A stretch of 64,000 nt of DNA from Gammaproteobacteria bacterium (GTDB lineage: Bacteria > Pseudomonadota > Gammaproteobacteria > Burkholderiales > SG8-41), in NCBI GenBank assembly GCA_041483135.1, contig JBGPFE010000017.1, positions 5,546 through 69,545 of the forward strand, in the 5' to 3' direction. Within the stretch, counting starts at the first letter, position 1; the number at the start of each line of letters is the position of its first letter. Both the position numbers and the translations under genes were made by a program. Shown piece after piece: positions 1-27,762 of this stretch. Below the pieces are notes generated by a model. The model was not told the DNA's origin and ran no database searches. It was given only the letters and a program-made list of their open reading frames with translations.

Positions 1-102
1 CGCTATCAGACCGGTGACGAAATGGCGCAGGCAATCAAGGCATGCATGGCAAGCGGCGGCGATGCCGCAGCGAAGCCGGATGTCGTTGATATCGGACTGT
101 AG
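1..102 (+). CDS. 3' end of an unidentified CDS running off the left edge
   Basis: Frame +1 is open from base 1 to TAG at 100-102 (..RYQTGDEMAQAIKACMASGGDAAAKPDVVDIGL*). Only 33 codons, so the product cannot be identified. Confidence 0.3.
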   Translation, partial: RYQTGDEMAQAIKACMASGGDAAAKPDVVDIGL

Positions 103-107
103 CGATC

Positions 108-935
108 ATGATGGCGAATCTCGGCACCGTGCTCGAAATCGCGACCGCCACCGATCCCGGCATGGTGCGCTCACACAACGAGGACAGCATCACCGCCAAT
201 GCTGAAATCGGTTTGGCGGTGCTCGCCGACGGCATGGGCGGCTACAACGCCGGCGAAGTCGCGAGCGGCATCGCGGTGGCGATGCTGACGACTGAAATGA
301 AGCAGGCGCTCGAGACGCGCGAGCCGCACGAAATCGACGGCGGCGGTGAGCCGCTGGCGGTCAAGCTGGTCAGGGAGAATTCGGCCAAGGCCAACGCCGC
401 AATCTTTCAGACTGCCAAGAGCCAGCCGCAGTATGCGGGCATGGGCACCACCCTGGTGGCGGTATTGTTTTTCGATAACCGCATGACGGTAGGCCACGTC
501 GGCGATTCACGTCTATACCGTCTGCGCCAGGACAAATTCGAGCAGATTACGCGCGACCACTCGCTGTTGCAGGAACAAATCGACAGCGGCATGATAACGA
601 AGGAGCAGGCACGCTACTCCCAGAACAAAAATCTGGTGACACGGGCGGTGGGCATCGACCCCGAAGTGGAAACAGAAGTCCACACTTACGATGTCGCGCC
701 AGGTGACATTTACCTGCTATGCTCGGACGGATTGAGCGACATGGTCATGGATGGAGACATACACTCTACATTGGATACGCTGCAATCGAACTTGCCGCTG
801 GCGGCGAAGCAACTGGTGCAACTCGCCAACGATAGCGGCGGACGTGACAACATTTCGGTGATTTTGGTGCGGGTGCTCGAGGATTTTGCGGTGCCGACGG
901 GATGGTTTGCCAAATTCAAGGCTTGGTTTAGATAA
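108..935 (+). CDS. PP2C-family Ser/Thr protein phosphatase
   Basis: PP2C motifs in the translation: RSHNEDS, ADGMGGYNAGEVAS, GTTLVAVLF, VGDSRLYR, LCSDGLSD, GGRDNISVILV. Confidence 0.9.
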   Translation: MMANLGTVLEIATATDPGMVRSHNEDSITANAEIGLAVLADGMGGYNAGEVASGIAVAMLTTEMKQALETREPHEIDGGGEPLAVKLVRENSAKANAAIFQTAKSQPQYAGMGTTLVAVLFFDNRMTVGHVGDSRLYRLRQDKFEQITRDHSLLQEQIDSGMITKEQARYSQNKNLVTRAVGIDPEVETEVHTYDVAPGDIYLLCSDGLSDMVMDGDIHSTLDTLQSNLPLAAKQLVQLANDSGGRDNISVILVRVLEDFAVPTGWFAKFKAWFR

Positions 936-956
936 TACGGTTACAGGGATACTGCC

Positions 957-1688
957 ATGGCGAAGTTGATTATGAGTCTGGACAACGCGGTGATCAGAGA
1001 GGTTCCGCTCGATAAGGAGCGCGTCACCATCGGTCGCAAAGCGCACAATGACATCCAGATCGACAATCTGGCCGTCAGCGGCGAGCATGCGTTGATCGTG
1101 ACGATACTGAACGATTCGTTCATGGAGGACCTCGGCAGTACCAATGGCACCCTGGTCAACGGCAATCCGGTCAAAAAGCACATACTGCAGAACAACGACG
1201 TGATCGAGATCGGCAAGTACAAGCTCAAATACGTGAGCGAAGCACCAGGCGGACAAGCATCGGTCGCCGATTTCGAGAAGACCATGGTCTTGCGCGCGCC
1301 GATGGCCAAGGCGGCGATGGAGGCCGCGCCCGCCGGCTTCGGCGATACGCAGGTCAGTCCCGCGGCAACCACGCAAAGCCAGCCGCCGCATGTGGCGGCG
1401 GCCACCGCCAAGCAGCCGGAAAAAATGGCGGCGATCCAGATATTGACCGGGCCCTCGGCGGGCAAGGAACTGGAGCTCACCAAGAATCTCACCACGCTCG
1501 GCAAACCCGGCGTGCAGGTGGCGGTGATCACGCGCCGGCCGCACGGTTATTTCATTACCCACGTCGAAGGCGCCAGTTTTCCGGTCATCAATGGCAAAGC
1601 ACTCGATGCCCAGGCGCACCAGCTCAACGATCACGACGTGATCGAGCTCGCGGGCGTGAAGATGGAGTTCTTCTTCAAGAACGGCTAG
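957..1688 (+). CDS. FHA-domain protein (N-terminal FHA plus a second C-terminal FHA-like domain)
   Basis: VTIGRKAHNDIQIDNLAVSGEHALI...GSTNGTLVNGNPV is a canonical FHA core. The C-terminus (LTTLGKPGVQVAVI...VINGKAL...DVIELAGVKMEF) repeats the pattern. Lies 21 bp after the PP2C gene. Confidence 0.85.
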   Translation: MAKLIMSLDNAVIREVPLDKERVTIGRKAHNDIQIDNLAVSGEHALIVTILNDSFMEDLGSTNGTLVNGNPVKKHILQNNDVIEIGKYKLKYVSEAPGGQASVADFEKTMVLRAPMAKAAMEAAPAGFGDTQVSPAATTQSQPPHVAAATAKQPEKMAAIQILTGPSAGKELELTKNLTTLGKPGVQVAVITRRPHGYFITHVEGASFPVINGKALDAQAHQLNDHDVIELAGVKMEFFFKNG

Positions 1689-1859
1689 GCCGCAATGCCC
1701 TGCCGGGCAGAAGCTGGCGCCCATATCCCAACTTAAATCATTGATAAAAACTATTTTATGGCCAGCGTTACTCGGCGATCCCGGCGCTGGTCACGCTTGC
1801 CAAGCTGCTTCAGCGAGCGGTCATAGCGTGGTCGCGCCTAACGGCGGCTGCGCGGTGTT

Positions 1860-1875
1860 TGGCACAGGACTTGCT
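1860..1875 (+). promoter_or_regulatory. Candidate sigma-54 (-24/-12) promoter for the cyclase-phosphodiesterase operon
   Basis: TGGCACAGGACTTGCT fits TGGCAC-N5-TTGCW exactly. It ends about 63 nt upstream of the TTG start at 1938, inside an otherwise unexplained 249-bp gap. An AT-rich stretch lies upstream at about 1730-1760. Confidence 0.6.
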
Positions 1876-1937
1876 GCATTGCGGGCGGAGGCCGACTGCG
1901 GCTGTGCGCAACAGCCGACTGCACCACAGGAGGCGGT

Positions 1938-4193
1938 TTGAAAAAACACATCGTTCGCATCGGCTTGGGCCTGGTCTTGGTGCTGGCGTTTCTCGCGCAC
2001 GCCGCAAAATGGGGAATTGGCAGCTGGACCTTCCAGCTGCCGCTGGTAAACCGGCTTGAGGCCGTCGTCTACGATACGCGGCTCGCGCTGACGATGCCGC
2101 GCACCGTCGACCCGAGTATCGTTATCCTCGATATCGACGAAAAAAGCCTCGCCGAGAAGGAGAAAGGCGGCGAGGGCCGCTGGCCGTGGCCGCGCGACCG
2201 CCTGGCGCTGCTGCTCGACAAGCTGTTCGACCATTACAAGATTGCGATCATCGGCTTCGACATTGTGTTCGCCGAGCGCGACGAAAGCTCGGGACTCAAG
2301 GTGCTGCAGCAACTCGCGCAAAAAGAGCTGAAGGACGTTGCGGGGTTTCAGGCGACTCTCAAACAACTGCAGCCGCAGCTCGAGTACGACCAGATTTTCG
2401 CCGAACACATGCGTAACCGGGCGGTGGTACTCGGCTACACGTTCACTCGCTTCGAGGGCGAAGGCAGCAAGAAAGGAGTGTTGCCGGCGCCGGTACTGCC
2501 GGCCGGCACGTTCGGCGGCAAGAACATCGACTTCGCGTCATTCCCCGGCTACACCGCGAACCTGCCCGAACTGCAGAAAAACGCAGCGAGCGCCGGGCAC
2601 TTCAGCCTGGATCCCGATCCCGACGGCATCCTGCGGCGCGTGCCGATGCTCGCCGAGTTTGGCGGCGCCTATTACGAACCGTTGTCGCTCGCGATCGTGC
2701 GCATGCTAATCGGCAGTCCGAATATCGTGCCGGGCTACCCGTCGGACAAGATCTGGTCGCGCAATTACTCGGGTCTCGAATGGCTCGAAGTCGGGCCGCT
2801 GCGCATCCCGGTCGATGAAAGGGTGAACGCGCTGATCCCCTACCGCGGTAAGCAGAAGAGCTTCAGTTATATTTCGGCGATCGATGTGATGAATGAGCGC
2901 GTCGATCCCGCGCAGCTCCAGGGCAAGATCTTGCTGGTCGGCACCACGGCGCCGGGCCTGCTCGACTTGCGCGCGACACCGGTCGAAGAGGTCTATCCGG
3001 GGGTGGAAATCCACGCCAACATGATCGCCGGCATGCGCGACGGCAATATCAAGCAGAAGCCGCCTTATGTGGTGGGCGCGGAATTCATGTCGCTGCTGCT
3101 GGCGGGGCTGGCCATGGCATTGCTGCTGCCGCTGCTCAATCCGCTCAAATCGTTGCTGGTAACGGTGGCGGTGCTGGTTGCTGTGCTGTTCACCAATTTG
3201 ATCGTGTTCCATTTCGGCAATCTGGTGCTGCCGCTGGCGTCGGGGTTGCTGTTGATCGCGCTCTTGTTCGCGCTCAACATGACTTACGGCTATTTCGTCG
3301 AAACCCGCGGCAAGCGCCAGATCACGGGGCTCTTCGGGCAGTATGTGCCGCCGGAACTCGTCGATGAAATGGCGAAGAACCCGGAAAGCTTCTCGATGGA
3401 AGGCGAATCCCGCGAGATGACGGTGTTGTTCAGCGACGTGCGCGGCTTCACCACCATTTCCGAGGGCCTCGACCCGAAGCAGCTGTCGCAGTTGATGAAC
3501 GAGTTCCTGACGCCGCTGACCGAGATCATCTACAAGCACCGCGGCACCATCGACAAGTACATGGGCGACTGCATCATGGCGTTCTGGGGCGCGCCGCTGT
3601 CCGATCCCAACCATGCGAGGAATGGAATTCTTGCCGGCCTCGAAATGCACGAAACGCTGAAACGGCTGCTGCCCGAGTTCAAGGCGCGCGGCTGGCCGGA
3701 GATCCGCATTGGCGTTGGCCTTAACACCGGCCGCATGAGCGTCGGCAACATGGGATCCCGCATCCGCCTCGCCTACACGGTGATGGGCGACGCCGTCAAT
3801 CTCGCCTCGCGACTGGAAGGCATCACAAAGGAATACGGCGCTGCTATCATAGTCGGCGAGGGCACCAAGAACGCGGTGCCCGATTTCGTGTTCCGCGAGA
3901 TCGACCGGGTGCGGGTGAAGGGCAAAGACGAGGCGGTCGCGATTTACGAGCCGTTCGGGTTGCAGGGGCAGGTCGAGAAAGCGAAACTCGACGAAATCAA
4001 GCTGTATGTCCAGTTTTTGCGGTTGTATCGCGCGCAGGACTGGGACCAGGCGGAGTTGCAGTTATTTAATTTGCAGAAGCAGGCGCCCGGCAGCGTGCTC
4101 TACAGCCACACGTTCGTGGAGCGGATCTCTTATCTGCGCGCCAATCCGCCCGGCAAGAGCTGGGACGGGGCGTTTACGTTCAAGACGAAATAA
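1938..4193 (+). CDS. CHASE2 sensor / class III adenylate cyclase (membrane-bound)
   Basis: TTG start preceded by AGGAGG (1928-1933). N-terminal signal/TM segment, long periplasmic CHASE2-like region, then a cluster of TM helices (res ~385-470). Cyclase core MTVLFSDVRGFTTISE, DKYMGDCIMAFWGAP, GVGLNTGRMSVGNMGS, YTVMGDAVNLASRLEG. By-eye alignment gives a Lys/Thr substrate pair, as in class IIIb adenylate cyclases. Confidence 0.9.
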   Translation: MKKHIVRIGLGLVLVLAFLAHAAKWGIGSWTFQLPLVNRLEAVVYDTRLALTMPRTVDPSIVILDIDEKSLAEKEKGGEGRWPWPRDRLALLLDKLFDHYKIAIIGFDIVFAERDESSGLKVLQQLAQKELKDVAGFQATLKQLQPQLEYDQIFAEHMRNRAVVLGYTFTRFEGEGSKKGVLPAPVLPAGTFGGKNIDFASFPGYTANLPELQKNAASAGHFSLDPDPDGILRRVPMLAEFGGAYYEPLSLAIVRMLIGSPNIVPGYPSDKIWSRNYSGLEWLEVGPLRIPVDERVNALIPYRGKQKSFSYISAIDVMNERVDPAQLQGKILLVGTTAPGLLDLRATPVEEVYPGVEIHANMIAGMRDGNIKQKPPYVVGAEFMSLLLAGLAMALLLPLLNPLKSLLVTVAVLVAVLFTNLIVFHFGNLVLPLASGLLLIALLFALNMTYGYFVETRGKRQITGLFGQYVPPELVDEMAKNPESFSMEGESREMTVLFSDVRGFTTISEGLDPKQLSQLMNEFLTPLTEIIYKHRGTIDKYMGDCIMAFWGAPLSDPNHARNGILAGLEMHETLKRLLPEFKARGWPEIRIGVGLNTGRMSVGNMGSRIRLAYTVMGDAVNLASRLEGITKEYGAAIIVGEGTKNAVPDFVFREIDRVRVKGKDEAVAIYEPFGLQGQVEKAKLDEIKLYVQFLRLYRAQDWDQAELQLFNLQKQAPGSVLYSHTFVERISYLRANPPGKSWDGAFTFKTK

Positions 4194-4195
4194 CG

Positions 4196-4969
4196 ATGGC
4201 ATCGATGAAACTGAGGATACTCGGCTGCAGCGGCGGCATCGGCGGCGACCTGCGCACCACCTCGATGCTGCTTGACCACGACGTCCTGATCGATGCCGGC
4301 ACCGGGGTCGGAGACTTGAGCATCGAGGAGCTTTCCCGTATCGATCACGTGTTTCTTACGCACTCGCATCTCGATCACGTGACGTCGATCCCGTTTCTGG
4401 TGGACACCGTGGGCTGGATGCGCGACAAGCCGATTACCGTGCATGCCATCGAGCCTACGCTCGAAATACTGCGCCAGCACCTTTTCAACTGGAAACTGTG
4501 GCCCGATTTCACGCAGATACCGGATGCGCAAAAACCGTTTTTGCGTTATCAGGCCGTCACGCTGGGCAAGACTGCGGAGGTTAACGGCCGCAAGTTGACG
4601 CCGTTGCCCGCCAACCACGTCGTGCCGGCAATCGGCTACCGTCTCGACTCGGGTCGCGCCAGCCTTGTGTTCACGGGCGACACCACCACCAACGATCCGC
4701 TGTGGCATGAGGTCAATAAGATCGACAATTTGCGCTATCTGATCATCGAGACCGCGTTTTGCAACAAGGAAAAGGACCTTGCCATCGCGTCCAAGCATTT
4801 GTGCCCGAGCATGCTCGCCGAGGAGCTCGTGAAACTCAAGCGCAAGGCCGAGGTCTATATAACGCATTTGAAGCCGGGAGAGATCGAGGTAACGATGCAG
4901 GAGATTCAGGAATGCGCGGGCGCCTGGAAGCCGCGCATGCTCGAAAACAACCAGGTTTTCGAACTGTAG
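4196..4969 (+). CDS. Class-II-like 3',5'-cyclic-nucleotide phosphodiesterase (metallo-beta-lactamase fold)
   Basis: MKLRILGCSGGIGG... and THSHLDHVTSIPFLVD resemble the class II cAMP-PDE signature HxHLDH. Start lies 2 bp after the cyclase stop. Confidence 0.75.
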   Translation: MASMKLRILGCSGGIGGDLRTTSMLLDHDVLIDAGTGVGDLSIEELSRIDHVFLTHSHLDHVTSIPFLVDTVGWMRDKPITVHAIEPTLEILRQHLFNWKLWPDFTQIPDAQKPFLRYQAVTLGKTAEVNGRKLTPLPANHVVPAIGYRLDSGRASLVFTGDTTTNDPLWHEVNKIDNLRYLIIETAFCNKEKDLAIASKHLCPSMLAEELVKLKRKAEVYITHLKPGEIEVTMQEIQECAGAWKPRMLENNQVFEL

Positions 4970-5041
4970 ACGGATAGCAGATTGGATTGGGATTTTCCCT
5001 GCAAATTTTGGTATGAGTGCTAGATGAGAGGTTGAGTCGCC

Positions 5042-7429
5042 ATGAGTACCGTACTCGAGAACAAACCCGTAGCGCAGGATAACCTTGCCGAGAAGCTGAA
5101 TTTCTCCAAGGGCCTGCAGTCGGTCGCCAACAAGATCCACGCGACCAGCAATATTGACGAGATCATGCTCGAATTGAGCCAGGAAATCTGCGGCCTGTTC
5201 AACGCCGACCGGCTCACGCTGTATCTCGTCAGCGAGGACAAGACCTCGATTATTTCGAAAGTCAAAACGGGCCTCAACTCGTTCAAGGATCTGAAGCTGC
5301 CGATCGCCGAACAGAGCATCGCCGGCTTCGTCGCGGTAAACAAGAAAATGATCAACATCCGCGACGTCTACGACGAGAAAGAACTCAAGTCCTACAGCCC
5401 GCAGCTCAATTTCCTGAAACAGGTCGACAACAAGACCGGCTATCGCACCAAGCAGATGCTGGTGGCGCCGGTGGTCGACGCGCAGAGCAAGGAACTGATC
5501 GGCGTGGTGCAAATCATCAACTCCAAGACCGGCCAGTCGTTCCCGCCGGTGATGGAGGAAGGGGCAACGCATCTGTGCGAAACGCTGGCGATCGCATTCC
5601 GCCAGCGCCAGAAGCCGGTGTCCATGGTCAAGGGGAAATACGACCATCTGGTTTCGAACGCGGTGATCTCCGCCGAGGAACTCGAGTTGGCGACGCGCTC
5701 GGCGCGGCGCAAGAACCTCGATATCGAAACCGTCCTGATCGACGAGTTCCAGGTCAAGTTGAGTTCGATCGGCGAGGCGCTCGCGGCCTACTTCGACGTG
5801 CCCTACGAGCCGCACAAGGCGGACCGGGTGAAGCCGATTGACCTGATGAAAAACATGAGCCGTGAATTCGTCGAAAGCAGCATGTGGGTGCCGATTGATG
5901 ACACAAAAGAGGGCATCATCGTGCTGACCACCGATCCGGAAAAAATCCGCGGCTCCAAGGTCGTCAATAACGTCTATCCGAAAAGCAAGATCGTCTACAA
6001 GGTGTGCTGCACCCGCGAGTTCGGCGCGACGCTTGATCTGTTTTTCGGCAGCGCTGCCGGCGGTACGCAGGGCATGGTGGACGACGGCACCAATATCGGC
6101 GATCTGCTTTCAGGCATGGATGACGAGGGCGCTGTCGAGGAAAATGAGGACGTCGAATCGGCAGCCGCGGACAACGAGGTCGTTAAGCTCGTCAACAAAG
6201 TCATCGTCGATGCCTACAAGCAAGGCGCATCGGATATCCACATCGAGCCTTATCCGGGCAAGGGAAAAACTGAAATCCGGTTCCGCAAGGACGGCTCGCT
6301 GGAGAATTACATTTCGGTGCCGGCGGCCTACCGCAGCGCGATTGCGGCGCGCCTGAAAATCATGTGCGATCTCGACATCTCGGAGCGGCGCAAGCCGCAG
6401 GACGGCAAGATCAAGTTCAAGAAGTACGGCCCGCTCGACATCGAGCTGCGGGTGGCAACGATCCCGTCGCAGGGCGGCGTCGAGGACATCGTGATGCGGA
6501 TTCTCGCCGCTGGCGAACCGATTCCGATCGACAAGCTCGGGCTGTCGAAGTACAACCTCGAGCAGTGCAAGGCCACGGTCTCGAAGCCGTACGGACTTTT
6601 TTTCGTGTGCGGGCCGACCGGTTCCGGCAAGACGACGACTCTGCATTCGGTGCTCGGCTATCTCAACACGCCGGACACGAAAATCTGGACCGCGGAAGAC
6701 CCGGTTGAAATCACGCAGCGGGGGCTGCGCCAGGTGCAGATGAACCCGAAAGCGGGGTTGACGTTCGCCATCGCGATGAAAGCCTTCCTGCGCGCCGACC
6801 CGGACATCATCATGGTCGGTGAGATGCGCGACAAGGAAACGGTGGGCACCGGCATTGAAGCGTCACTGACCGGCCACCTGGTGTTTGCCACGTTGCACAC
6901 CAACTCGGCGCCGGAATCGATCATCCGCCTGCTCGATATGGGCATGGACCCGTTCAACTTTGCCGACGCGCTGCTCGGCATCCTGGCGCAGCGCCTGACT
7001 AAACGCCTGTGCGGCAAATGCAAGAAGCCGCACGTTGCGACGAAGGAGGAACTGCGTGCGCTGCTGGATGAGTATTCGCTCGAAATGGTGCATACCGAAA
7101 CCTGGAAGAAAGACATGAAGGCCGCCAAGGAAAAGCAGTTCCAGGAATGGGTCAAGGAATTCGGCAATGAGAAAGGCGAGATCACGTTGTATGAACACGC
7201 CGGCTGCGAAGTGTGCCGCGACTCTGGCTATAAAGGCCGGGTTGGCTTGCACGAATTACTGATCGGCACTGACGCGATCAAGAAGAACATCCAGGAGCAC
7301 GCGCGTGTCGCCGAAATGTTCGCGACCGCGCTCGAGACCGGGATGCGCACGCTGAAGCAGGACGGCATCGAGAAAGTGCTGATGGGCACTACCGACATTC
7401 ACCAGGTGCGTGCAGTCTGTATCAAATAA
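5042..7429 (+). CDS. GspE/PilB-family secretion ATPase with N-terminal GAF domain
   Basis: GAF-like N-terminus (res ~30-190), then a T2SSE_N-like region. ATPase core has Walker A GPTGSGKTTTLHS, MVGEMRD, a His box ATLHTN, and a tetracysteine motif CGKC...CEVC followed by GYKGRVGLHELL. Confidence 0.9.
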   Translation: MSTVLENKPVAQDNLAEKLNFSKGLQSVANKIHATSNIDEIMLELSQEICGLFNADRLTLYLVSEDKTSIISKVKTGLNSFKDLKLPIAEQSIAGFVAVNKKMINIRDVYDEKELKSYSPQLNFLKQVDNKTGYRTKQMLVAPVVDAQSKELIGVVQIINSKTGQSFPPVMEEGATHLCETLAIAFRQRQKPVSMVKGKYDHLVSNAVISAEELELATRSARRKNLDIETVLIDEFQVKLSSIGEALAAYFDVPYEPHKADRVKPIDLMKNMSREFVESSMWVPIDDTKEGIIVLTTDPEKIRGSKVVNNVYPKSKIVYKVCCTREFGATLDLFFGSAAGGTQGMVDDGTNIGDLLSGMDDEGAVEENEDVESAAADNEVVKLVNKVIVDAYKQGASDIHIEPYPGKGKTEIRFRKDGSLENYISVPAAYRSAIAARLKIMCDLDISERRKPQDGKIKFKKYGPLDIELRVATIPSQGGVEDIVMRILAAGEPIPIDKLGLSKYNLEQCKATVSKPYGLFFVCGPTGSGKTTTLHSVLGYLNTPDTKIWTAEDPVEITQRGLRQVQMNPKAGLTFAIAMKAFLRADPDIIMVGEMRDKETVGTGIEASLTGHLVFATLHTNSAPESIIRLLDMGMDPFNFADALLGILAQRLTKRLCGKCKKPHVATKEELRALLDEYSLEMVHTETWKKDMKAAKEKQFQEWVKEFGNEKGEITLYEHAGCEVCRDSGYKGRVGLHELLIGTDAIKKNIQEHARVAEMFATALETGMRTLKQDGIEKVLMGTTDIHQVRAVCIK

Positions 7430-7440
7430 CGCCCGTCGCC

Positions 7441-9099
7441 ATGAATCAAATGCAGCGCTTGCCAGATCCCGCCAATCCGATCGAGCGCCTGGAGCAGCTC
7501 AACCAGATCGGGGTCGCGCTTTCGAAAGAAACCGACATCAACCGGTTGCTTGAAGCAATCCTGCTGGCTGCGCAGAAAATCACGCGCGCGGACGGCGGGA
7601 CGCTCTACCGCATGACCGAGGAGCGCACGCTGAAATTCGAGATCATGCGCAACGACACGCTCAACATCGCGATGGGCGGCACCACCGGCGTCGAGATCCC
7701 GTTCCACCCGATACACCTGTTCGACCAGGACGGCAAACCGATCAACACGATGGTGGTGGCGTACGCGGTGCACAACGACAAGTCGGTCAATATCGCGGAC
7801 GCCTACACCCAGGAGGGGTTCGACTTCTCGGGCACCAAGAACTTCGACAAGAAAACCGGCTATCGCTCGCAGTCGTTCCTGACGGTGCCGATGAAGAACC
7901 ACGAAAACGAGATCATCGGCGTGCTGCAGCTGTTGAACGCCAAGGATCCCGCGACGGGTACGGTGATTGCGTTCTCGTCCGAGGACCAGCGGCTTGCCGA
8001 ATCGCTCGCCTCGCAGGCCGCGATCGCGCTCACCAACCGGCTGCTGATCAATCACCTCGAAAACCTGTTCGAGTCGTTCATCAATCTGATCAACGCAGCA
8101 ATCGACGACAAGTCGCCGTACACCGCCGGGCACTGCGAGCGCGTGCCGCTGCTGACCATGATGCTGGCGGAGGCGGTCGACAACGTCCGGGTCGGCCCGC
8201 TCAAGAGCTTCAAGATGTCGGACAAAGACCGCTACGAGCTCAAGATCGCGGGACTTCTGCACGATTGCGGCAAGGTGACGACGCCGGTGCACGTAGTCGA
8301 CAAGGCGACCAAGCTGGAGACGATATTCGACCGCATCCATCTGATTGATACGCGCTTCGAGGTCATCAAGCGCGATGCCGAGATCGCGCTGCTCAAGGCC
8401 AGGCTGGACGCGTTGGAGAAGGACGACAAACAGGCACTGCGCAAGATCGATCGTGACTTCGAGCTGTGCGTGCGCGAGATCAATCAAGACCGCGAATTCC
8501 TGCGCTTCTGCAACGTCGGCGGCGAGGCGATGAAGCCGGAGGACCAGGAGCGGGTGAAGCAGATCTCGGCCAAATACCGCTGGCGCGACGTCGAGGGTAA
8601 CCCGGTTGATTTTCTGACCGGCGATGAGGCCGAGAACCTGACAATCCGCGCCGGCACGCTGACCGCGGCGGAGCGCCAGATCATCAATCATCACATCGAA
8701 GTCACGATCCAGATGCTCGAGGCCCTGCCGTGGCCGAGGCACTTGAAGAAAGTGCCTGAATACGCAGGCGGGCATCACGAGCGCATGGATGGCAAGGGCT
8801 ATCCTCGCGGCCTCACGCGCGAGCAGATGTCGGTGCAGGCGCGGTGCATGGGGATCGCCGATATCTTCGAAGCGCTCACCGCCAAGGACAGGCCCTACAA
8901 GAAGGGCAAGACGCTGTCGGAATCGCTTTCCATCCTCGGCAAGTTCAAGCTGGGCGGGCACATCGACCCGGATCTGTTCGACGTGTTCATGTGGGAAAAG
9001 GTTTACCTCAATTACGCACAGCAGCACATGGACGCGCATCAAGTCGACGAAATCAACCTGTCCAAGATACCAGGCTACGTCCCGCCACCGCCGCAGTAA
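7441..9099 (+). CDS. GAF-domain HD-GYP phosphohydrolase (putative cyclic-dinucleotide phosphodiesterase)
   Basis: N-terminal GAF, then HD-GYP signatures LLHDCGKVTTP and GGHHERMDGKGYPRGL. Lies 11 bp after the ATPase gene. Confidence 0.9.
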   Translation: MNQMQRLPDPANPIERLEQLNQIGVALSKETDINRLLEAILLAAQKITRADGGTLYRMTEERTLKFEIMRNDTLNIAMGGTTGVEIPFHPIHLFDQDGKPINTMVVAYAVHNDKSVNIADAYTQEGFDFSGTKNFDKKTGYRSQSFLTVPMKNHENEIIGVLQLLNAKDPATGTVIAFSSEDQRLAESLASQAAIALTNRLLINHLENLFESFINLINAAIDDKSPYTAGHCERVPLLTMMLAEAVDNVRVGPLKSFKMSDKDRYELKIAGLLHDCGKVTTPVHVVDKATKLETIFDRIHLIDTRFEVIKRDAEIALLKARLDALEKDDKQALRKIDRDFELCVREINQDREFLRFCNVGGEAMKPEDQERVKQISAKYRWRDVEGNPVDFLTGDEAENLTIRAGTLTAAERQIINHHIEVTIQMLEALPWPRHLKKVPEYAGGHHERMDGKGYPRGLTREQMSVQARCMGIADIFEALTAKDRPYKKGKTLSESLSILGKFKLGGHIDPDLFDVFMWEKVYLNYAQQHMDAHQVDEINLSKIPGYVPPPPQ

Positions 9100-11253: not shown

Positions 11254-12999
11254 GTGATGCTTAGCAATTTGTTGTTGCGCATCTTCGGGCGCGCGGCCCG
11301 CGTCAAGGCGGCTGGCCGCCAGGCCGTCGACGAATGTCTGCAGCAGGGATATCGCAGCCAGCAGGCGGGAGAGCAGGCGGCGGCTGAGCGCTGCTACCGG
11401 CGTGCGCTCGAACTCGATCCCGGCAATGTCGACGCGCATTATCTGCTCGGGGCCCTGCTCGGTCAGACTGGTAATCTCGCCCGAGCGGCAGCACACCTCG
11501 ATCAGGCGCTCGCCCTCAAATCCGATTTCGCCGACGCGCACGCCGCACGCGGCAACGTGTTGCTGCTGCTGGACCATCGGCAAGCTGCGGCCGCGAGCTA
11601 TGAGCGGGCGCTCCGCCTTGATCCCGGCCACGCCGCGGCGCATTTCAATCTGGGGTTGATTCAGCAGGGCGCCGGCGAACACGCTGAGGCGCTGGGGCAT
11701 TTTGAGCGTGCCTATGCGCTGGCGCCGGACCTTCCCGATCTGCTGAAAAACCTGACGCTGCTGCAAATCGAGTTCGAACGCTTCGACGCAGCCGAGTCCG
11801 CGCTGCAACGGGTGCTGGAGCAGGAGCCGCAACACTATGATGCGTTAAAGTGCCTGGGACTCACGCTGCAGAAAATGCACCGCCCGGAGCGGGCGCTTCA
11901 ATACTACCTCAGGGCAAGCGCGCTTGACGGCGCTGACGCAGAACTGCTCAATAACCTGGGCATCGTGCTGCAGGATCTCGGGCGGCTCGATGAGGCAATT
12001 GCAAGCTACGATGCGGCCATCGCGCTCAAGCCCGATTTCGCGCTGGCGATATGGCACCGTTCGCTGGCATATCTGCTGCAACACAATTTCACACGCGGCT
12101 GGCCCGACTACGAGTTGCGGTTGATCAGCGCCGAGCAGCCACGGCGCCCGATCCAGTTTCCGCGCTGGGATGGGACCGCGCTGGCCGGCAGAAAGATACT
12201 CGTGTTCGCGGAACAGGGTTTGGGCGACGAAATCATGTTTGCGTCGTGTCTGCCGCAGGTAATCGCCGCGAGCGCACACTGTGTGATCGAGTGCTCGGCC
12301 AAGCTCGAGACGATATTCCGGCGCTCGTTTCCCGCCGCCACCGTTTACACGGCGAGCGCGGATCGGACGCTGCCGCAGAGCGTGCGCGACGCGGGTATCG
12401 ACGTCCAGCTCCCGATCGGGAGCCTGCCGCTGCACCTGAGGAGGAGTCGCGCAGACTTCCCCCGACATGAGGGTTATCTCAAGGCCGACACCGTACGGGT
12501 CGCCGATTGGCAGGCACGGCTCGCAGCGCTGGGACCAGGCCTGAAGGTGGGCGTTTCCTGGTGCGGGGGCACGGCCAGGTCACGCCGTCCGGTGCGCTCT
12601 ATCCCGCTGGCGCAATGGCTGCCGATTATGCAGGTCGGGAACGCGCACTTCATCGACCTGCAGTACACTGACTGTCGCGCTGAAATTGATGCGTTGCGGG
12701 CCGCAACCGGGGTGCGCGTCCACAGCTGGGAAGAGGCGCGCGCTGATTATGAGCATACGGCTGCCCTGGTTGCGGCGCTCGACCTCGTCATCGGCGTGTG
12801 CACAGCGGTGATTCATCTCGGCGGCGCGCTGGGCAGACCGGTCTGGGTGATGGCCCCGTTCAGCCCGGAATGGCGCTACGGAATTGCTGGCGAAACCATG
12901 CCTTGGTATCCTTCCGTGCGCGTGTTCCGGCAGCCGGTATATGGCGCCTGGGATGCGGTGATCAACGCAGTGGCACAATCCCTGCGAGGGATGGCTTAA
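11254..12999 (+). CDS. TPR-repeat protein with C-terminal GT9-like (heptosyltransferase-fold) glycosyltransferase domain, paralog 1
   Basis: N-terminal TPRs (ALELDPGNVDAHYLLG.., ALRLDPGHAAAHFNLG..). C-terminal domain has ILVFAEQGLGDEIMFASCLP (compare the LGD..P motif of GT9 enzymes), VGVSWCGG and MPWYPSVRVFRQ. Confidence 0.8.
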   Translation: MMLSNLLLRIFGRAARVKAAGRQAVDECLQQGYRSQQAGEQAAAERCYRRALELDPGNVDAHYLLGALLGQTGNLARAAAHLDQALALKSDFADAHAARGNVLLLLDHRQAAAASYERALRLDPGHAAAHFNLGLIQQGAGEHAEALGHFERAYALAPDLPDLLKNLTLLQIEFERFDAAESALQRVLEQEPQHYDALKCLGLTLQKMHRPERALQYYLRASALDGADAELLNNLGIVLQDLGRLDEAIASYDAAIALKPDFALAIWHRSLAYLLQHNFTRGWPDYELRLISAEQPRRPIQFPRWDGTALAGRKILVFAEQGLGDEIMFASCLPQVIAASAHCVIECSAKLETIFRRSFPAATVYTASADRTLPQSVRDAGIDVQLPIGSLPLHLRRSRADFPRHEGYLKADTVRVADWQARLAALGPGLKVGVSWCGGTARSRRPVRSIPLAQWLPIMQVGNAHFIDLQYTDCRAEIDALRAATGVRVHSWEEARADYEHTAALVAALDLVIGVCTAVIHLGGALGRPVWVMAPFSPEWRYGIAGETMPWYPSVRVFRQPVYGAWDAVINAVAQSLRGMA

Positions 13000-13050
13000 G
13001 CCCGGTCAACCCGCATATGCAGAGCGGTACTCACGTCAGCAGAGGCGGTT

Positions 13051-13701
13051 ATGAATTACAGTCGCGCAAACCCGAGCAGTCGATATCTCGATTTGCAAGC
13101 CATGTATCGACAGATGCACCAGCAAGGCGAGCAATTTCTCGGCACACCTCCGGAGAAGACTTTTCCCGGCTTCAGTCTCGACGCCCAGGTCGGGCGGATC
13201 AAGGATCTGGTCGCCCGCACCGGCGCGCAGACCATACTGGACTATGGTTGCGGCAAAGGCCTGCAATATCAGCCGCGGCCGATCAGTGATGGCAGCGGCG
13301 TGCAATGGCCGGGCGTGCTCGATTACTGGGATATCGACGAGGTGGTTTGCTACGATCCATGCTACGGGCCGTACAGCCAGCTGCCGCAGGGCAAGTTCGA
13401 CGGCGTGATTTCGACCGATGTGCTCGAGCACTGTCCCGAGCCGGACGTGCCGTGGATCATCGACGAGATTTTCGGTTACGCGACACGCTTCGCATTCGCC
13501 AACGTTGCCTGTTACCCGGCGCGCAAAAGGCTGCCCAACGGGGAGAATGCCCACTGCACGATCAAGCCGGTCGAATGGTGGCGGGACCTGGTGCGCGATA
13601 TTGCGTCACGCTATCCGGGAGTGGAATGGGAATTCTGGGTTCAGTTCCAGGCCGATACGGCGCAGGGCAAGCAGTATATCGAGCAGAAGATCAGCGGGTG
13701 A
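13051..13701 (+). CDS. Class I SAM-dependent methyltransferase (216 aa, paralog A)
   Basis: Motif I ILDYGCGKGLQY and VISTDVLEHC. Same length and collinear with the ORF at 21995-22645. Confidence 0.7.
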   Translation: MNYSRANPSSRYLDLQAMYRQMHQQGEQFLGTPPEKTFPGFSLDAQVGRIKDLVARTGAQTILDYGCGKGLQYQPRPISDGSGVQWPGVLDYWDIDEVVCYDPCYGPYSQLPQGKFDGVISTDVLEHCPEPDVPWIIDEIFGYATRFAFANVACYPARKRLPNGENAHCTIKPVEWWRDLVRDIASRYPGVEWEFWVQFQADTAQGKQYIEQKISG

Positions 13702-13795
13702 GCGCGCCGGTGCGTCTATACGCATGCCGCCCGCATGGGCGCAGTCCGGGACTTTATGATGTCGGCCGGCCGTATTAAAGAGTTACGGGCGCCTT

Positions 13796-14380
13796 ATGCA
13801 GAATTCAAAGCAAAAACTTCATCTCGGTTGCGGCAGAACCATCCTCGAGGGCTGGATCAACGTTGACTCTAGGCAGCTGCCCGGCGTCGATGTCGTGGCC
13901 GATTTCGATGATTGCCGAAACACGCCACTGCCGTTCGCAGACAACAGCGTAGACGAGTTCCTGGCCAGCCATCTGATCGAGCATCTGGCGCAGCCGCTGC
14001 CTTTCATGCAGGAGCTGTATCGCATTGCGCGCGCCGACGCGGTAGCGGTATTCAGGCTGCCGTACGGATCGAGCGACGAGGCGTACGAGGACCCGACCCA
14101 TGTCCGCCAGTATTTTCTCAATTCGTTCGGGTATTTTTCACAGCCGCATTACTGGCGCGCCGATTACGGTTATCGGGGCGACTGGGAAACTGAGACGATA
14201 ACACTGCGGGTGGATGCCGAAAAACACCCTGGAAAAACGTCGGAGCAGATCATGCAGGAAGTGCACACGCTGCGTAACGTGGTGCGCGAGATGGTCGTGG
14301 AGTTGCGGGCGATCAAGCCGCCGCGCGCGCCCAAAGCGGAGCTGCAAAAAGGCTGCCGCATCAACATCAAGCTCGTCTGA
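13796..14380 (+). CDS. Class I SAM-dependent methyltransferase (Methyltransf_11-like)
   Basis: KLHLGCGRTILEGWINVD and DNSVDEFLASHLIEHL. Stop overlaps the next start (TGATG). Confidence 0.75.
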   Translation: MQNSKQKLHLGCGRTILEGWINVDSRQLPGVDVVADFDDCRNTPLPFADNSVDEFLASHLIEHLAQPLPFMQELYRIARADAVAVFRLPYGSSDEAYEDPTHVRQYFLNSFGYFSQPHYWRADYGYRGDWETETITLRVDAEKHPGKTSEQIMQEVHTLRNVVREMVVELRAIKPPRAPKAELQKGCRINIKLV

Positions 14381-16239
14381 TGTCGTTGTCCTCGCATATG
14401 CTGGCCAGCTTATTCAAGCACCTGCTCAAACCGGGCGCCGCCCGCCGCCCGCCGGCCGAGCCGGTCGCCAACCGGCTGCTCGCCGCCGTGCGGCTGCAGC
14501 GGGGCGGCGAGCTCGCGCAGGCGGAAGCGATCTATCGCGCGATACTCGAACTTGATCCCGAAAATATCGATGTCCTGCATCTGCTCGGCAATAATCTGTT
14601 GCTGCAGCGCAGACCCGATGAGGCGATCGCGCTGCTGCAGCGGGTGATCGCGGCCCAGCCTGATTGCGCGGAGGCTTTTTACAATCTCGGCGGCGCGTTT
14701 CGCGCAGGCGCTGATCTTGACAACGCGCTGCTCAATTACCGCAAAGCGGTCGAGCTGCGGCCCGAATTCGTCGAGGCCCTCAGCGGCCTTGCCGGCATAT
14801 TAAAAGCCGTGGGCAGTTACGATGAAGCCGAAACGTGCTATCGCAGGGCGCTTGCACTCAATCCCGATTTCGCGGAGGCACACTATAACTTCGGCAATCT
14901 GCTTCATCTCATGGGCCGGGTGGATGACGCGATTGCAAGCTACCGCCGCGCCATTGCGATCAAGCCGGATTTCGTGACGGCGCACAGCAATCTGATTTAC
15001 GCGCTCAACTTTCATCCGGGTTACGAACCGCGCACGGTATTTGAGGCGCATCTCGAGTGGGCGCGCCGGCACGCCGAGCCGCTTACGCGATTGGCGGCGC
15101 CGCATCGCAACACCCCGCTCGCAGAGCGACGCCTGCGCGTGGGCTATGTTTCTCCGAATTTCAGGGACCATGCGGCGGCTTATTTTTTCGAGCCGGTGCT
15201 GGTCCATCACGACCCGCAGCTGTTCGAGATCGTCTGTTATTCGGACGTGGCGCGGCCGGATGCGCTTACGCAGCGGCTGCGGCAATATCAGGCGGAATGG
15301 CGCGATTGCACGCATCTCGACGATCGGGCGCTCGCGGAGCTGGTGCGCCGGGATGCGATCGACATTCTGGTCGATCTGACCGGGCATACCGAGAATAACC
15401 GGCTGCTGGTGTTCGCGCGCAAACCGGCGCCCGTGCAGGTGACCTGGAATGGCTACGCCAACACCACCGGCATGTCGGCGATCGGCTACCGGGTCAGCGA
15501 CGCCTACGCCGATCCGCCGGGCACGACCGAGCACTTGCATACTGAGCGCCTGGTGCGGTTGCCCGGCATCTATATGGCTTTCCGCCCCCCGGGCGACAGT
15601 CCGCCGGTGGGTGAGTTGCCGTGCGAGCGGACGGGCTATGTGACTTTCGCGTCGTTCAATGCGCTGGCCAAGATCACGCCACACGTGGTCGCTCTGTGGG
15701 CGCGCATTCTGAGCGCGGTTCCCGCTGCGCGGCTGATGATGGCGACAGTCCCGATGGGCAGCGCCCGAGAGCGTGTTGCGCAGATGTTCGCCGAACAGGG
15801 CGTGGATACCGCGCGACTTGAATTGCACGGCAGATTACCGTTCCAGGAATTTCTCGCTCTACACCAGCGCGCGGACATCGCCCTCGACCCGTTTCCGTTT
15901 CACGGCACCACCACAACCTGTCATACTTTATGGATGGGGATCCCGGTGATAACGCGCGCGGGCGCGAGCCACGTGTCCCGGGTCGGGGTGAGCATGCTGT
16001 CCAATCTCGGACTTGCGCGCCTGATTGCGCAATCTGACGACGAATACGTGGAAATCGCCAGGTCGCTCGCGGCGGATCTGCCGGGACTCAACAGCCTGCG
16101 CAGGAGCTTGCGTAATCGTTTGCTGGGCGCCCCGAACACCGATGGCCTGAGGCTCACGCGCCACCTTGAGTGCGCTTATCGCGATATGTGGCGCGCCTGG
16201 TGCCGCACGCAGAACGTCGACGTTGCAGGGCAGACATGA
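14380..16239 (+). CDS. TPR-repeat protein with C-terminal GT41/SPINDLY-like (O-GlcNAc-transferase-type) domain, paralog 1
   Basis: TPRs, then RVGYVSPNFRDHAAAYFFEPVL, ILVDLTGHT, PAPVQVTWNGY..TTG, YVTFASFN, LDPFPFHGTTTTCHTLWMGIPVIT. Confidence 0.8.
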   Translation: MSLSSHMLASLFKHLLKPGAARRPPAEPVANRLLAAVRLQRGGELAQAEAIYRAILELDPENIDVLHLLGNNLLLQRRPDEAIALLQRVIAAQPDCAEAFYNLGGAFRAGADLDNALLNYRKAVELRPEFVEALSGLAGILKAVGSYDEAETCYRRALALNPDFAEAHYNFGNLLHLMGRVDDAIASYRRAIAIKPDFVTAHSNLIYALNFHPGYEPRTVFEAHLEWARRHAEPLTRLAAPHRNTPLAERRLRVGYVSPNFRDHAAAYFFEPVLVHHDPQLFEIVCYSDVARPDALTQRLRQYQAEWRDCTHLDDRALAELVRRDAIDILVDLTGHTENNRLLVFARKPAPVQVTWNGYANTTGMSAIGYRVSDAYADPPGTTEHLHTERLVRLPGIYMAFRPPGDSPPVGELPCERTGYVTFASFNALAKITPHVVALWARILSAVPAARLMMATVPMGSARERVAQMFAEQGVDTARLELHGRLPFQEFLALHQRADIALDPFPFHGTTTTCHTLWMGIPVITRAGASHVSRVGVSMLSNLGLARLIAQSDDEYVEIARSLAADLPGLNSLRRSLRNRLLGAPNTDGLRLTRHLECAYRDMWRAWCRTQNVDVAGQT

Positions 16240-16916
16240 TGATCAGGGTTTTCATCGGCTACGATACCAGAGAAGCAGTCGCATTCAGCGTGCTCGCCTA
16301 CAGCATCCACGCGCGCGCGTCGGCGCCGGTCGCGATCACGCCGGTGATGTTGAGCGAGCTGACAAGCGTACTCACGCGCGCGCGCCATCCGCTGCAGTCC
16401 ACGGATTTTTCATTTTCACGTTTTCTGACGCCTTTTCTCTCGGATTACGCCGGCTGGTCCATCTTCATGGATTGCGACATGCTGGTGCTCGACGACATCG
16501 CCAAGCTCTACGCGTTGCGCGACGACCGTTTTGCCGTCATGGCGGTCAAACACGACCACGTGCCCAAGGAAAACAGGAAATTCCTGGACCAGCCGCAGAC
16601 CGCCTACCAGAAGAAGAACTGGTCGAGCGTGATGCTGTTCAACAACGCCAAATGCCGTGCGCTGACGCCTGAATACGTGAATACGGCATCGGGGCTCGAG
16701 CTGCATCAATTCAAGTGGCTCGCCAATGACGACTTGATCGGCGAGATACCCGGCCGCTGGAATCATCTGGTCGGCTACAATCCGCCGCGCCGGGACGTTT
16801 CTCTGGTGCATTACACGCTGGGCGGCCCGTACTTCAACGAGTATCGCGATTGCGAGTATGCCGACGAGTGGCGCCGCGAGCAGCAGGCGATGCTGCGCGT
16901 TGATCAGCGCAAGTGA
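16236..16916 (+). CDS. GT8-like glycosyltransferase
   Basis: ATGA overlap with the upstream stop. RVFIGYD..EAVAF, FSRFLTPFL, DxD-type MDCDMLVLDD, HYTLGGPYF. Confidence 0.65.
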   Translation: MMIRVFIGYDTREAVAFSVLAYSIHARASAPVAITPVMLSELTSVLTRARHPLQSTDFSFSRFLTPFLSDYAGWSIFMDCDMLVLDDIAKLYALRDDRFAVMAVKHDHVPKENRKFLDQPQTAYQKKNWSSVMLFNNAKCRALTPEYVNTASGLELHQFKWLANDDLIGEIPGRWNHLVGYNPPRRDVSLVHYTLGGPYFNEYRDCEYADEWRREQQAMLRVDQRK

Positions 16917-16970
16917 TTTGATGCCGCAAGCGGCACGCCGCGGGCGGGGCGCGGGCGGCTGACCGGAACC

Positions 16971-18551: not shown

Positions 18552-18603
18552 TAGGGATCAGGCAGCGGTAACCCCGGAATCGCATTCTGGAAAGGCTGGT
18601 CTT

Positions 18604-20331: not shown

Positions 20332-20573
20332 AGCATTTGTTTAGAATCGGGCGGACCCTTACTGGCAAGAGTTCCCGGATGTGCCTTGATTGGGAGGCCG
20401 TGTAACGGACGAATGCGGATTTGCCTGTAACGCGCGTACCCGCAGCTTGATAATGCATAAATGTGACCAAGCGGGATTGGTGAGACAATTGACAGGATCC
20501 CGATTCCCGTAAAGCAATAAATGCCCCGAAATATTTGCGACCCGGTGCGTCGCTTGCCAGGCGTTCAGATCAG

Positions 20574-21896: not shown

Positions 21897-21994
21897 TGCG
21901 GGTAGCGGGAGGCGAAGCGTGGCAAGGATTTTGTACGGGGTTGCGCACGGCTGGAGCCTAGAGTTGTTGATAGGGTGGACCAGGATCGATTCGA

Positions 21995-22645
21995 ATGAGC
22001 TATAGCCGCGACCATCCGAGCGCGAAGTATCAAAGCATGATCGCGCTATATCGTGAACTGCATGCCAAGGGCGAGCGCAGGCTCGGCCTGCCGCCGGAGG
22101 CGACCTACCCCGGCGTGAGTCTGCTGCCGCATATCGGGCACATCAAGGATTTGATCGTGCGCACCGGTGCCAGGACCATCCTCGACTACGGTTGCGGCAA
22201 AGGCCTCCAATACGAGCCGCAGAAAATCGCGGTCCCGGGGGAAGGCGAATGGGACGGCGTCATCGAGTACTGGGACGTTGACGAAGTGCGATGTTACGAC
22301 CCGTGTTATGAGCCTTACAGCAAATTGCCCGAAGGCAAATTCGACGGCGTGGTCTCGACCGACGTGCTCGAGCATTGCATCGAAGATGACATACCGTGGA
22401 TTATCGCCGAAATGTTTTCATATGCTGATCGCTTCGTGTTCGCGAACGTCGCGTGCTATCCGGCCCTCACAACGTTGCCGAACGGTGAAAACGCGCATTG
22501 CACGGTGCGCCCGATCGGCTGGTGGCAGGAAATATTTGCTGCGGCGAGCAGAATCCATCCGCAGGTCCTCTGGAAACTGTACGTCGAGGAACACGCGCAT
22601 AGCGGGCACGGTGACAGCGAAACCGGGCGCATCGCCGAGAGCTGA
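21995..22645 (+). CDS. Class I SAM-dependent methyltransferase (216 aa, paralog B)
   Basis: ILDYGCGKGLQY, VVSTDVLEHC. Collinear with 13051-13701, including CYDPCYxPY and ANVACYPA...NGENAHCT. Confidence 0.7.
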   Translation: MSYSRDHPSAKYQSMIALYRELHAKGERRLGLPPEATYPGVSLLPHIGHIKDLIVRTGARTILDYGCGKGLQYEPQKIAVPGEGEWDGVIEYWDVDEVRCYDPCYEPYSKLPEGKFDGVVSTDVLEHCIEDDIPWIIAEMFSYADRFVFANVACYPALTTLPNGENAHCTVRPIGWWQEIFAAASRIHPQVLWKLYVEEHAHSGHGDSETGRIAES

Positions 22646-22661
22646 AGGCAGGCCGGTTGCC

Positions 22662-26116: not shown

Positions 26117-26155
26117 GGGTGCGTTGGTGAATCCATTGGCGCAAGGGGCCGCGGC

Positions 26156-27760: not shown

Positions 27761-27762
27761 GC

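Follow-up and report, generated by a model that had tools for sequence, protein, structure and literature searches.

The H1 type VI secretion system of Pseudomonas aeruginosa is controlled post-translationally by a threonine-phosphorylation pathway that consists of the kinase PpkA, the PP2C phosphatase PppA, and Fha1. The ATPases MshE of Vibrio cholerae and PilB of Myxococcus xanthus are gated by cyclic di-GMP (c-di-GMP) through the MshEN domain (PMC5013675, PMC4624772); its binding motif is made up of two tandem 24-residue stretches of the pattern RLGxx(L/V/I)(L/V/I)xxG(L/V/I)(L/V/I)xxxxLxxxLxxQ, for which the authors also gave a relaxed form (PMC5013675). The type IV pili of P. aeruginosa are subject to control by cyclic AMP (cAMP) via CyaB, CpdA, Vfr, and Pil-Chp, with cAMP acting transcriptionally through Vfr (PMC11656802). 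We analyzed a 64-kb stretch of contig JBGPFE010000017.1 (positions 5,546 to 69,545) of a bacterium of the Burkholderiales lineage SG8-41; this whole stretch is called the window, and all coordinates count from its first letter. It opens with a cluster of genes which we interpret with moderate confidence, judging from the sequence, as a seven-gene betaproteobacterial signaling operon at the major type IVa pilin locus, its hub being a PilB/GspE-type ATPase that carries a cAMP-type GAF domain.

Six plus-strand open reading frames (ORFs) follow one another at the beginning of the window, separated by gaps of 21, 249, 2, 72, and 11 bp (see Table 1 for positions). The first-pass annotation of this DNA had given exactly these positions and spacings, and its domain assignments for all six genes agree with our searches against Pfam and NCBIfam profiles, the NCBIfam scores being judged against curated cutoffs. 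It had also recognized a phospho-threonine module consisting of a PP2C phosphatase and an FHA reader, both of which are indeed present, but had missed the Ser/Thr kinase that completes it, because the window start falls inside the kinase gene. The C-terminus of the kinase is identical on four identical contigs from metagenomes and a metagenome-assembled genome (MAG) (L001–L004); the full-length protein comprises 857 amino acids, matches the Pkinase (E 4.8e-56) and CHASE2 (E 9e-52) families, and its gene ends 5 bp ahead of the PP2C gene. Since the kinase gene precedes that of PP2C, the cluster consists of seven genes, spaced as in an operon, and encodes two CHASE2 receptors. The CHASE2 domains of the kinase and the cyclase are only 25% identical (E 4e-17), and a common signal cannot be deduced from them.

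The ATPase matches the T2SSE family (PF00437) with an E-value of 1.4e-112, and PilB of M. xanthus is its best match among solved structures (E 1.5e-107). The motor motifs GPTGSGKTTT (Walker A), AEDPVE, DPDIIMVGEMRD, and TLHTN are present, as in the PilB/GspE superfamily. Of 77 orthologs, 76 keep Walker A, Walker B, and the His box; the four cysteines of the zinc site (C657, C660, C722, and C725) are invariant in the family, which is further marked by the motif WTAEDPVEITQ and by an insertion between the two cysteine pairs. With MshE and PilB, the protein has in common a hexameric motor of the PilB/GspE family, a (here predicted) second-messenger input at the N-terminus, and the T2SSE_N fold. 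It differs from them in that its MshEN-like domain matches the Pfam MshEN model at the level of the fold only (E 1.8e-7): the two 24-residue motifs are gone, neither the ATPase nor any of 150 full-length homologs having them in strict or relaxed form, and a GAF domain of the cyclic nucleoside monophosphate (cNMP) type, with cAMP as its predicted messenger, stands in front. Since both forms of the motif are missing, binding of c-di-GMP by the MshEN-like domain was rejected, and with it the earlier proposal that c-di-GMP converges on the ATPase by this route.

The closest solved relative of the GAF domain of the ATPase is the cAMP-binding GAF domain of Anabaena CyaB2 (1ykd, E 2e-30). In GAFb of CyaB2, R291 and T293 form hydrogen bonds with the adenine, I308 stacks, and D356 makes a contact via water (PMC4411481). 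By alignment, these four residues correspond to R57, T59, V74, and D129 of the ATPase, which thus has the contact residues of a cNMP-binding GAF domain; T59 and D129 are invariant in the family alignment, R57 is conserved to at least 90%, and 63 of 71 full-length orthologs have the RxT motif; in Nitrospira, among the distant homologs, an Asp stands at the position of R291 of CyaB2. An NKFDE-like motif ('N.K...F....EE') is likewise common to the two proteins. In contrast to CyaB2, the protein has a single GAF domain instead of a tandem pair, coupled not to a cyclase but to a secretion-type ATPase as output. The predicted ligand of this GAF domain is a cyclic nucleotide, probably cAMP, for which the match to the CyaB2 residues is the strongest argument that the sequence provides.

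The protein encoded downstream of the ATPase matches the HD_5 family (E 4e-40); its best solved match is PmGH (4mcw, E 6e-30), followed by a 3'3'-cGAMP phosphodiesterase (5z7c). Behind an N-terminal GAF domain it carries the motifs LLHDCGK and HHERMDGKGYP that characterize HD-GYP enzymes, both of which are kept in 32 of 34 orthologs. The architecture is that of PmGH and of Tlr0485 from Thermosynechococcus, the latter already known as a cAMP-activated GAF-HD-GYP c-di-GMP phosphodiesterase and thus a precedent for crosstalk from cAMP to c-di-GMP. Unlike these, the protein of the window has an insertion of about 100 amino acids with predicted helical structure, located between the HD half of the domain and the GYP half (residues ~304–395, window positions 8350–8625), and its GAF domain lacks an equivalent of R291 of CyaB2; an insertion of a like kind was described in GAF-linked HD-GYP proteins (PMC12943098).

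A sequence block shared by the GAF domains of the ATPase and the HD-GYP protein had initially been taken as distinctive to the two, and as a sign that both sense the same ligand, with cAMP as the candidate. The domains are 30% identical (E 5e-11) and the block is found in both, but its pattern, D..TGYR[TS]..L..P......IGV.Q..N, also occurs in the GAF domains of PDE5, PDE2A, CyaB2, and PmGH, and is thus a generic signature of the cNMP-type GAF branch. The nearest references differ as well, being CyaB2 for the ATPase, and PmGH and PDE5 for the HD-GYP protein. In the sequence AD[G/A]GTLY of the latter, 33 of 34 orthologs have Gly or Ala at the position of the adenine-reading Arg, while Thr and Asp are kept. 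The block therefore does not establish a shared ligand. What stands of the cAMP proposal is that both domains belong to the cNMP branch and that the ATPase keeps the CyaB2 residues; the HD-GYP protein, consistently without the Arg, does not fit it equally well. A common ligand is nevertheless possible, because a cAMP-activated enzyme of this architecture exists in Tlr0485.

The cyclase matches CHASE2 (E 3e-56) and the class III family Guanylate_cyc (E 4.5e-21), and its closest solved structures are Synechocystis Cya2/IlaC and P. aeruginosa CyaB (E 9.6e-35 for CyaB). The residues that define a class III (IIIb) adenylate cyclase, namely two metal-binding Asp, the substrate-selecting Lys and Thr, and the transition-state Asn and Arg, are contained in the motifs FSDVRGFT, GTIDKYMGD, and YTVMGDAVNLASR. 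The substrate positions are the Lys of GTIDKYMGD, conserved in 30 of 34 orthologs, and the Thr of YTVMGD, conserved in all 34; the Lys aligns with a Glu in Cya2 (2w01) and with a Lys in its phytochrome-fused cyclase sequence (6fht). Class IIIb adenylate cyclases typically carry such a Lys/Thr pair, and the substrate residues found here are of the adenylate type.

The metallo-beta-lactamase-fold protein encoded next to the cyclase scored 51.9 bits against PF02112 (PDEase_II; cutoff 23.7), the match covering only residues 48–112. The HxHxDH site is present (HSHLDH) and, together with FNxxIWPDF, is found in 40 of 43 orthologs. When a profile built from ten orthologs was used, the best match was the yeast cAMP phosphodiesterase PDE1 (4ojv, E 7.6e-13, residues 46–214), which has FNxxIWPDF in common with the family; nucleases of the RNase Z type followed closely (E 1e-11). 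The protein is on record as a member of the Apyc1 family, and its score against NF041851 is 41 bits, with a cutoff of 400. We predict a class II cyclic-nucleotide phosphodiesterase as the likely assignment. As in the cAMP control of P. aeruginosa, a class IIIb adenylate cyclase and a phosphodiesterase (here a predicted one) are linked with type IV pili; here, however, the predicted receptor domain is fused to the motor, the cyclase has a CHASE2 sensor, and the predicted phosphodiesterase would be of class II (metallo-beta-lactamase fold), unlike CpdA.

The PP2C protein matches PP2C_2 (E 4e-15) and exceeds the cutoff of the Stp1-type model NF033484 (253.7 versus 230 bits). The adaptor encoded next to it had been described as a double-FHA reader, which is correct for its N-terminal half only. 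The N-terminal domain is canonical (residues 23–86, E 2.8e-21), with the loops TIGRK...SGEHA...STNGT expected of an FHA domain, and also matches the TagH model of type VI secretion systems (T6SS; E 1.3e-10). The C-terminal half, FHA-like but degenerate, is recognizable by its fold (hhalign against the N-terminal FHA domain: probability 95.7%, E 1e-8); the phosphate-binding Arg is replaced by Lys (GK for GR) and the SxxH loop is absent. In the otherwise variable linker, the threonine motif DFEKTMV (residues 105–111) is present in 23 of 33 orthologs, and KTM[VI] in 27 of 33; its T109, with a hydrophobic residue at position +3, is a plausible candidate for a phospho-acceptor or self-binding site. 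As kinase, phosphatase, and reader are all present, the phospho-threonine module is complete. As in the H1 type VI secretion pathway, genes for a membrane Ser/Thr kinase, a PP2C phosphatase, and an FHA adaptor accompany that of a secretion-machine ATPase, but there are no T6SS genes here, the ATPase is of the PilB/GspE type and not ClpV, and the adaptor contains a degenerate FHA-like domain in addition to the canonical one. A separate observation is that the window contains a second Ser/Thr kinase gene about 31 kb from the cluster (40642–42045, plus strand), whose product of 467 amino acids (Pkinase E 2.7e-57) ends in a CAP-type cNMP_binding domain (E 3e-17), a further direct link between a kinase and cNMP in the same organism.

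The first-pass annotation had proposed to survey the gene order in related genomes, and this survey showed that the genes are co-conserved as a unit centered on the ATPase. The best 120 database matches to the ATPase are 78–100% identical to it, and 252 clusters formed at 50% identity match its N-terminal region at E-values below 1e-30; a protein search of a plasmid collection returned only ordinary PilB/GspE homologs of about 35% identity. Scanning one genome per species with full-length ATPase sequences yielded 80 loci, which were then searched with the seven cluster proteins. Among the 44 betaproteobacterial loci that have an ATPase at least 50% identical and at least 8.5 kb of upstream sequence, FHA, PP2C, and phosphodiesterase genes are each present in 35, the cyclase gene in 31, and the kinase gene in 28; the HD-GYP gene was found in 32 of the 52 loci with enough downstream sequence. 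The order kinase-PP2C-FHA-cyclase-phosphodiesterase-ATPase(-HD-GYP) recurs across the Betaproteobacteria, and is complete with all seven genes in Nitrosomonadales, Gallionellaceae, Propionivibrio, Sulfuritalea, Chitinimonas viridis, and many Burkholderiales MAGs. Variants include loci of Comamonadaceae without the HD-GYP gene, PP2C-FHA-phosphodiesterase-ATPase without kinase and cyclase (L010, L014, L030, L032, L035), kinase-PP2C-FHA-ATPase without the cyclase/phosphodiesterase pair (L037, L076), and phosphodiesterase-ATPase (L012, L018, L060); in Oxalobacteraceae, the cyclase and HD-GYP genes are divergent from the ATPase gene. Since variants shed either the cyclase/phosphodiesterase pair or kinase and cyclase, yet retain the ATPase, the latter is the common node. 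In 14 loci (e.g., L019, 8937–10004), a gene of about 355 codons combining cNMP_binding and rhodanese domains, which is absent from the window, is inserted directly before the ATPase gene and after that of the phosphodiesterase; its product would add another receptor for cyclic nucleotides to the module.

A link to pili emerged when all ORFs of the 80 loci were clustered. Apart from the seven genes of the cluster, the neighbor that recurs most often is a type IVa pilin, with 30 genes in 22 loci, all but two of them on the strand of the ATPase gene. Where the HD-GYP gene is absent, the pilin gene starts 67 (L036), 115 (L065), 127 (L024), or 157 bp (L038) after the ATPase gene; in L006, L007, L023, L027, L048, L056, and L074, it directly follows the HD-GYP gene, and in L005 a single TPR gene lies in between. 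Because synteny links the ATPase gene to those of major type IVa pilins, we favor a role in type IV pili over an unknown secretion function. The earlier designation of the ATPase as an orphan is correct in so far as no platform protein, prepilin peptidase, or secretin is encoded in the window, but is overstated in view of the pilin genes both here and in the 22 related loci.

In the mechanism that we propose, the two envelope-facing CHASE2 receptors would set two cytoplasmic states. Kinase and PP2C would set threonine phosphorylation, the target being perhaps T109 of the adaptor linker, or the ATPase, and the FHA/FHA-like adaptor would read the phosphorylation state. The cyclase and the class II phosphodiesterase would set the local cAMP level; cAMP would bind to the GAF domain of the ATPase and switch the hexameric motor, which would drive extension of the type IV pilus through a PilC platform encoded elsewhere. 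In the same response, the GAF-HD-GYP enzyme would lower the level of c-di-GMP or of a related dinucleotide. The direct second-messenger input of a PilB-like motor would thereby have passed from MshEN and c-di-GMP to GAF and cAMP. More tentatively, such post-translational control of pilus extension, with a local cAMP circuit acting on a GAF-PilB-type motor, AND-gated with the kinase/PP2C/FHA switch, and with GAF-HD-GYP resetting c-di-GMP, may possibly operate in Betaproteobacteria at large, nitrifiers and oxidizers of iron and sulfur included.

Several observations weigh against a cAMP-switched pilus motor as the hub of this operon. The ligand, the phospho-target, and the output are all features that we infer. 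As isolated GAFb of CyaB2 also binds cGMP (PMC4411481), the residue match does not prove that the GAF domain of the ATPase is specific for cAMP, and the HD-GYP protein lacks the Arg that reads N1 of adenine. The ATPase scores below the cutoffs of both the PilB equivalog TIGR02538 (484.3 versus 675.65 bits), which is its best-scoring family, and the GspE equivalog TIGR02533 (440.3 versus 630.25 bits). No gene for PilC, PilD, PilQ/secretin, or PilT was found in the window, in about 4.7 kb upstream of it, or in 10 kb downstream; the related loci likewise contain none for PilC, PilD, or a secretin, pilC and pilD never being adjacent to the ATPase gene. Distant GAF-ATPases (43–48% identity; within L054–L084) are solitary among housekeeping genes, with no pilin nearby. 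Part of the synteny, finally, is explained by inherited chromosomal context, many loci having sucCD upstream and an M48-TPR gene downstream.

An alternative which we consider unlikely, though worth weighing, is that the GAF-ATPase is the only PilB of the organism, an ordinary one with an extra N-terminal sensor, pilC and pilD being located elsewhere and the neighboring genes coding for general regulators of piliation. Its position beside pilA, as for pilB in Pseudomonas, would fit, as would the pilins directly after it in 22 loci, the PilB proteins as best solved matches, and the intact ATPase motifs and zinc site. The score under the PilB equivalog cutoff, the WTAEDPVEITQ motif and the insertion between the cysteine pairs, both specific to the family, and the consistent separation from pilC and pilD argue against it. 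The particular case of an ordinary PilB whose complete pil operon would adjoin the window, which the first-pass annotation itself had set against its proposal, is not borne out by the flanks, which are free of pil genes over about 4.7 kb upstream and 10 kb downstream; upstream, they comprise formyltransferase and CoA transferase genes, and downstream, lptFG, ilvBHC, and others.

That the ATPase drives no pilus at all, but acts in signaling or scaffolding as a nucleotide-gated ATPase, or in an unrecognized export process, with the pilin adjacency being a matter of inherited gene order, appears quite improbable. The distant family members, embedded in the orders dxr-rseP-proS-ATPase-mltC in Nitrospira and RR-ABCF-ATPase-tetR in Desulfobacterales, and the absence of a platform gene nearby are consistent with this possibility; none of the partner genes occurs in the 13 distant loci (Desulfobacterales, Nitrospira, Planctomycetota, Syntrophales). 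M. xanthus PilB is, moreover, reported to have a signaling role (PMC5544727). However, the adjacency to pilins outlasts rearrangements in several families, the pilin following the ATPase gene where the HD-GYP gene is absent and the HD-GYP gene where it is present, and the catalytic motifs are strictly conserved.

We regard it as very unlikely that two independent modules without a common target, kinase/PP2C/FHA for cell-envelope signaling and a cAMP/c-di-GMP system, simply abut each other. The gap of 249 bp between the FHA and cyclase genes of the window, with its sigma-54-like motif, and the loci that have one module only could be taken in favor of this view, but each module on its own is still attached to the ATPase (kinase-PP2C-FHA-ATPase in L037 and L076, phosphodiesterase-ATPase in L012, L018, and L060), and in most relatives the gap measures just 18–120 bp and contains no sigma-54 motif. 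A Pycsar-type anti-phage island composed of cyclase, Apyc1-like nuclease, and effectors is hardly credible and was rejected: there are matches to PycC models in the cyclase domain (best E 6e-31) and to PD-T4-6 models in the kinase domain, and the phosphodiesterase belongs to the fold family of phage Apyc1, but these PADLOC matches of cyclase and kinase are generic and at the domain level, the ATPase, HD-GYP, FHA, and phosphodiesterase proteins match no defense family, no Pycsar effector is present, the CHASE2 sensors suggest environmental sensing, and the stable chromosomal context with vertical conservation at 60–85% identity across families is unlike that of a mobile defense island.

Table 1. 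Features of the signaling cluster and of the pilin region, in window coordinates.
Feature	Position	Strand	Basis
CHASE2 + Ser/Thr protein kinase, 3' end (33 codons + stop)	1..102	+	Pkinase, CHASE2 matches
PP2C Ser/Thr phosphatase (Stp1/IreP type), 275 aa	108..935	+	PP2C_2, NF033484
FHA / FHA-like adaptor, 243 aa	957..1688	+	FHA E 2.8e-21
Perfect sigma-54 -24/-12 consensus TGGCACAGGACTTGCT	1860..1875	+	249-bp gap, 62 nt before cyclase start codon
CHASE2 transmembrane class IIIb adenylate cyclase, 751 aa	1938..4193	+	CHASE2, Guanylate_cyc
Metallo-beta-lactamase-fold protein, predicted class II-type cyclic-nucleotide phosphodiesterase, 257 aa	4196..4969	+	PDEase_II
GAF + MshEN-like (T2SSE_N) + PilB/GspE-type ATPase, 795 aa	5042..7429	+	T2SSE
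GAF + HD-GYP phosphodiesterase (PmGH-type), 552 aa	7441..9099	+	HD_5
TPR, GT41, GT9-like glycosyltransferases (fused/adjacent to TPR), FkbM, TylF methyltransferases	11254..30142	+	ORF/domain annotation
Sigma-54-like motif upstream of pilin gene 1	30446..30462	+	consensus scan
Type IVa major pilin gene 1, 139 aa	30527..30946	+	Pilin E 1.6e-11, N_methyl E 1e-10
Perfect sigma-54 consensus upstream of pilin gene 2	31060..31075	+	TGGCACN5TTGCW
Type IVa major pilin gene 2, 139 aa	31124..31543	+	Pilin E 2e-9

Between the cluster and the pilin genes of the window lie three genes on the minus strand and a stretch of about 19 kb with TPR, GT41, and methyltransferase genes (Table 1), which probably represents an inserted pilin-modification island. 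The TPR/glycosyltransferase/methyltransferase region also includes 9462–11073 on the minus strand, and the two pilins are rich in Ser and Thr. In several related loci, the pilin genes are followed by a gene for a PglL/Wzy_C pilin oligosaccharyltransferase; the TPR/GT41 region is possibly a different system for glycosylation or methylation of pilin, in place of the PglL-type oligosaccharyltransferase of the relatives.

Perfect matches to the sigma-54 consensus TGGCACN5TTGCW occur twice in the 64 kb, with 0.07 expected, one being located ahead of the cyclase gene and the other ahead of the second pilin gene. The former may be an internal promoter. Since it is absent from the FHA-cyclase gap in all 38 related loci, it is either specific to the lineage or a chance match, and the idea that the motif links the cyclase promoter with those of the pilin genes was dropped for the same reason. 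Scans of positions 1–11500 for consensus promoters and terminators were uninformative, terminator-like sites being found at chance level and none inside the intergenic gaps, and an Rfam scan revealed no riboswitch near the cluster or the pilin genes.

Convergent with the HD-GYP gene, a protein of 104 amino acids without a Pfam match is encoded at 9121–9435 on the minus strand. Homologs with 50–83% identity are encoded in nine related loci, in seven of them at the same position and in two elsewhere; the protein could belong to the signaling system. Further downstream, the window contains genes of sulfur oxidation (34402–36782, minus strand; 42980–54419, plus strand), coding for SoxY, SoxA/TsdA-type cytochromes, heterodisulfide-reductase-like CCG/4Fe-4S proteins, a GcvH-like lipoate-binding protein, an LplA-type ligase, and radical SAM enzymes. 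This DNA probably comes from a sulfur-oxidizing betaproteobacterium. A chrB-b cis-regulatory RNA (RF03086; 37.5 bits, gathering threshold 36.5) was detected at 40448–40500 on the minus strand; because it is located within the 5' end of the ORF called for a chromate transporter (38958–40652), the start codon of the latter probably lies further downstream.

A search of the full-text literature, the coverage of which was incomplete, retrieved no paper describing this combination of genes, and within these limits the earlier statement that it is absent from described systems is upheld. GAF fusions go unmentioned in a 2024 review of how PilB is regulated. The component families are all known; judging by the proteins and loci compared here, what is new is the fusion of a GAF domain to the ATPase, together with a dedicated and conserved set of partners. 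To our knowledge, direct control of pilus or secretion motors by a second messenger has been known only for c-di-GMP, acting through MshEN or PilZ/FimX, and the only effects of cAMP on pili known so far are transcriptional (Vfr/CRP). If the proposed model is true, the ATPase would provide the first example of a pilus or secretion motor with a direct cAMP receptor, and also of a type IV pilus ATPase gated through FHA and threonine phosphorylation; control at the level of the motor would thus gain a second messenger and a phospho-switch. The model is directly testable in cultured carriers, namely Chitinimonas viridis CECT 7703, which has the full set of seven genes, and Curvibacter sp. CHRR-16, Pseudothauera rhizosphaerae, and Duganella sacchari, which have variants. 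The module is widespread, occurring in Nitrosomonas, Nitrotoga, Gallionella, Sulfuritalea, Rhodoferax, relatives of Thauera, Massilia, and Duganella, environmentally important Betaproteobacteria in which surface attachment and the formation of flocs and biofilms are important.

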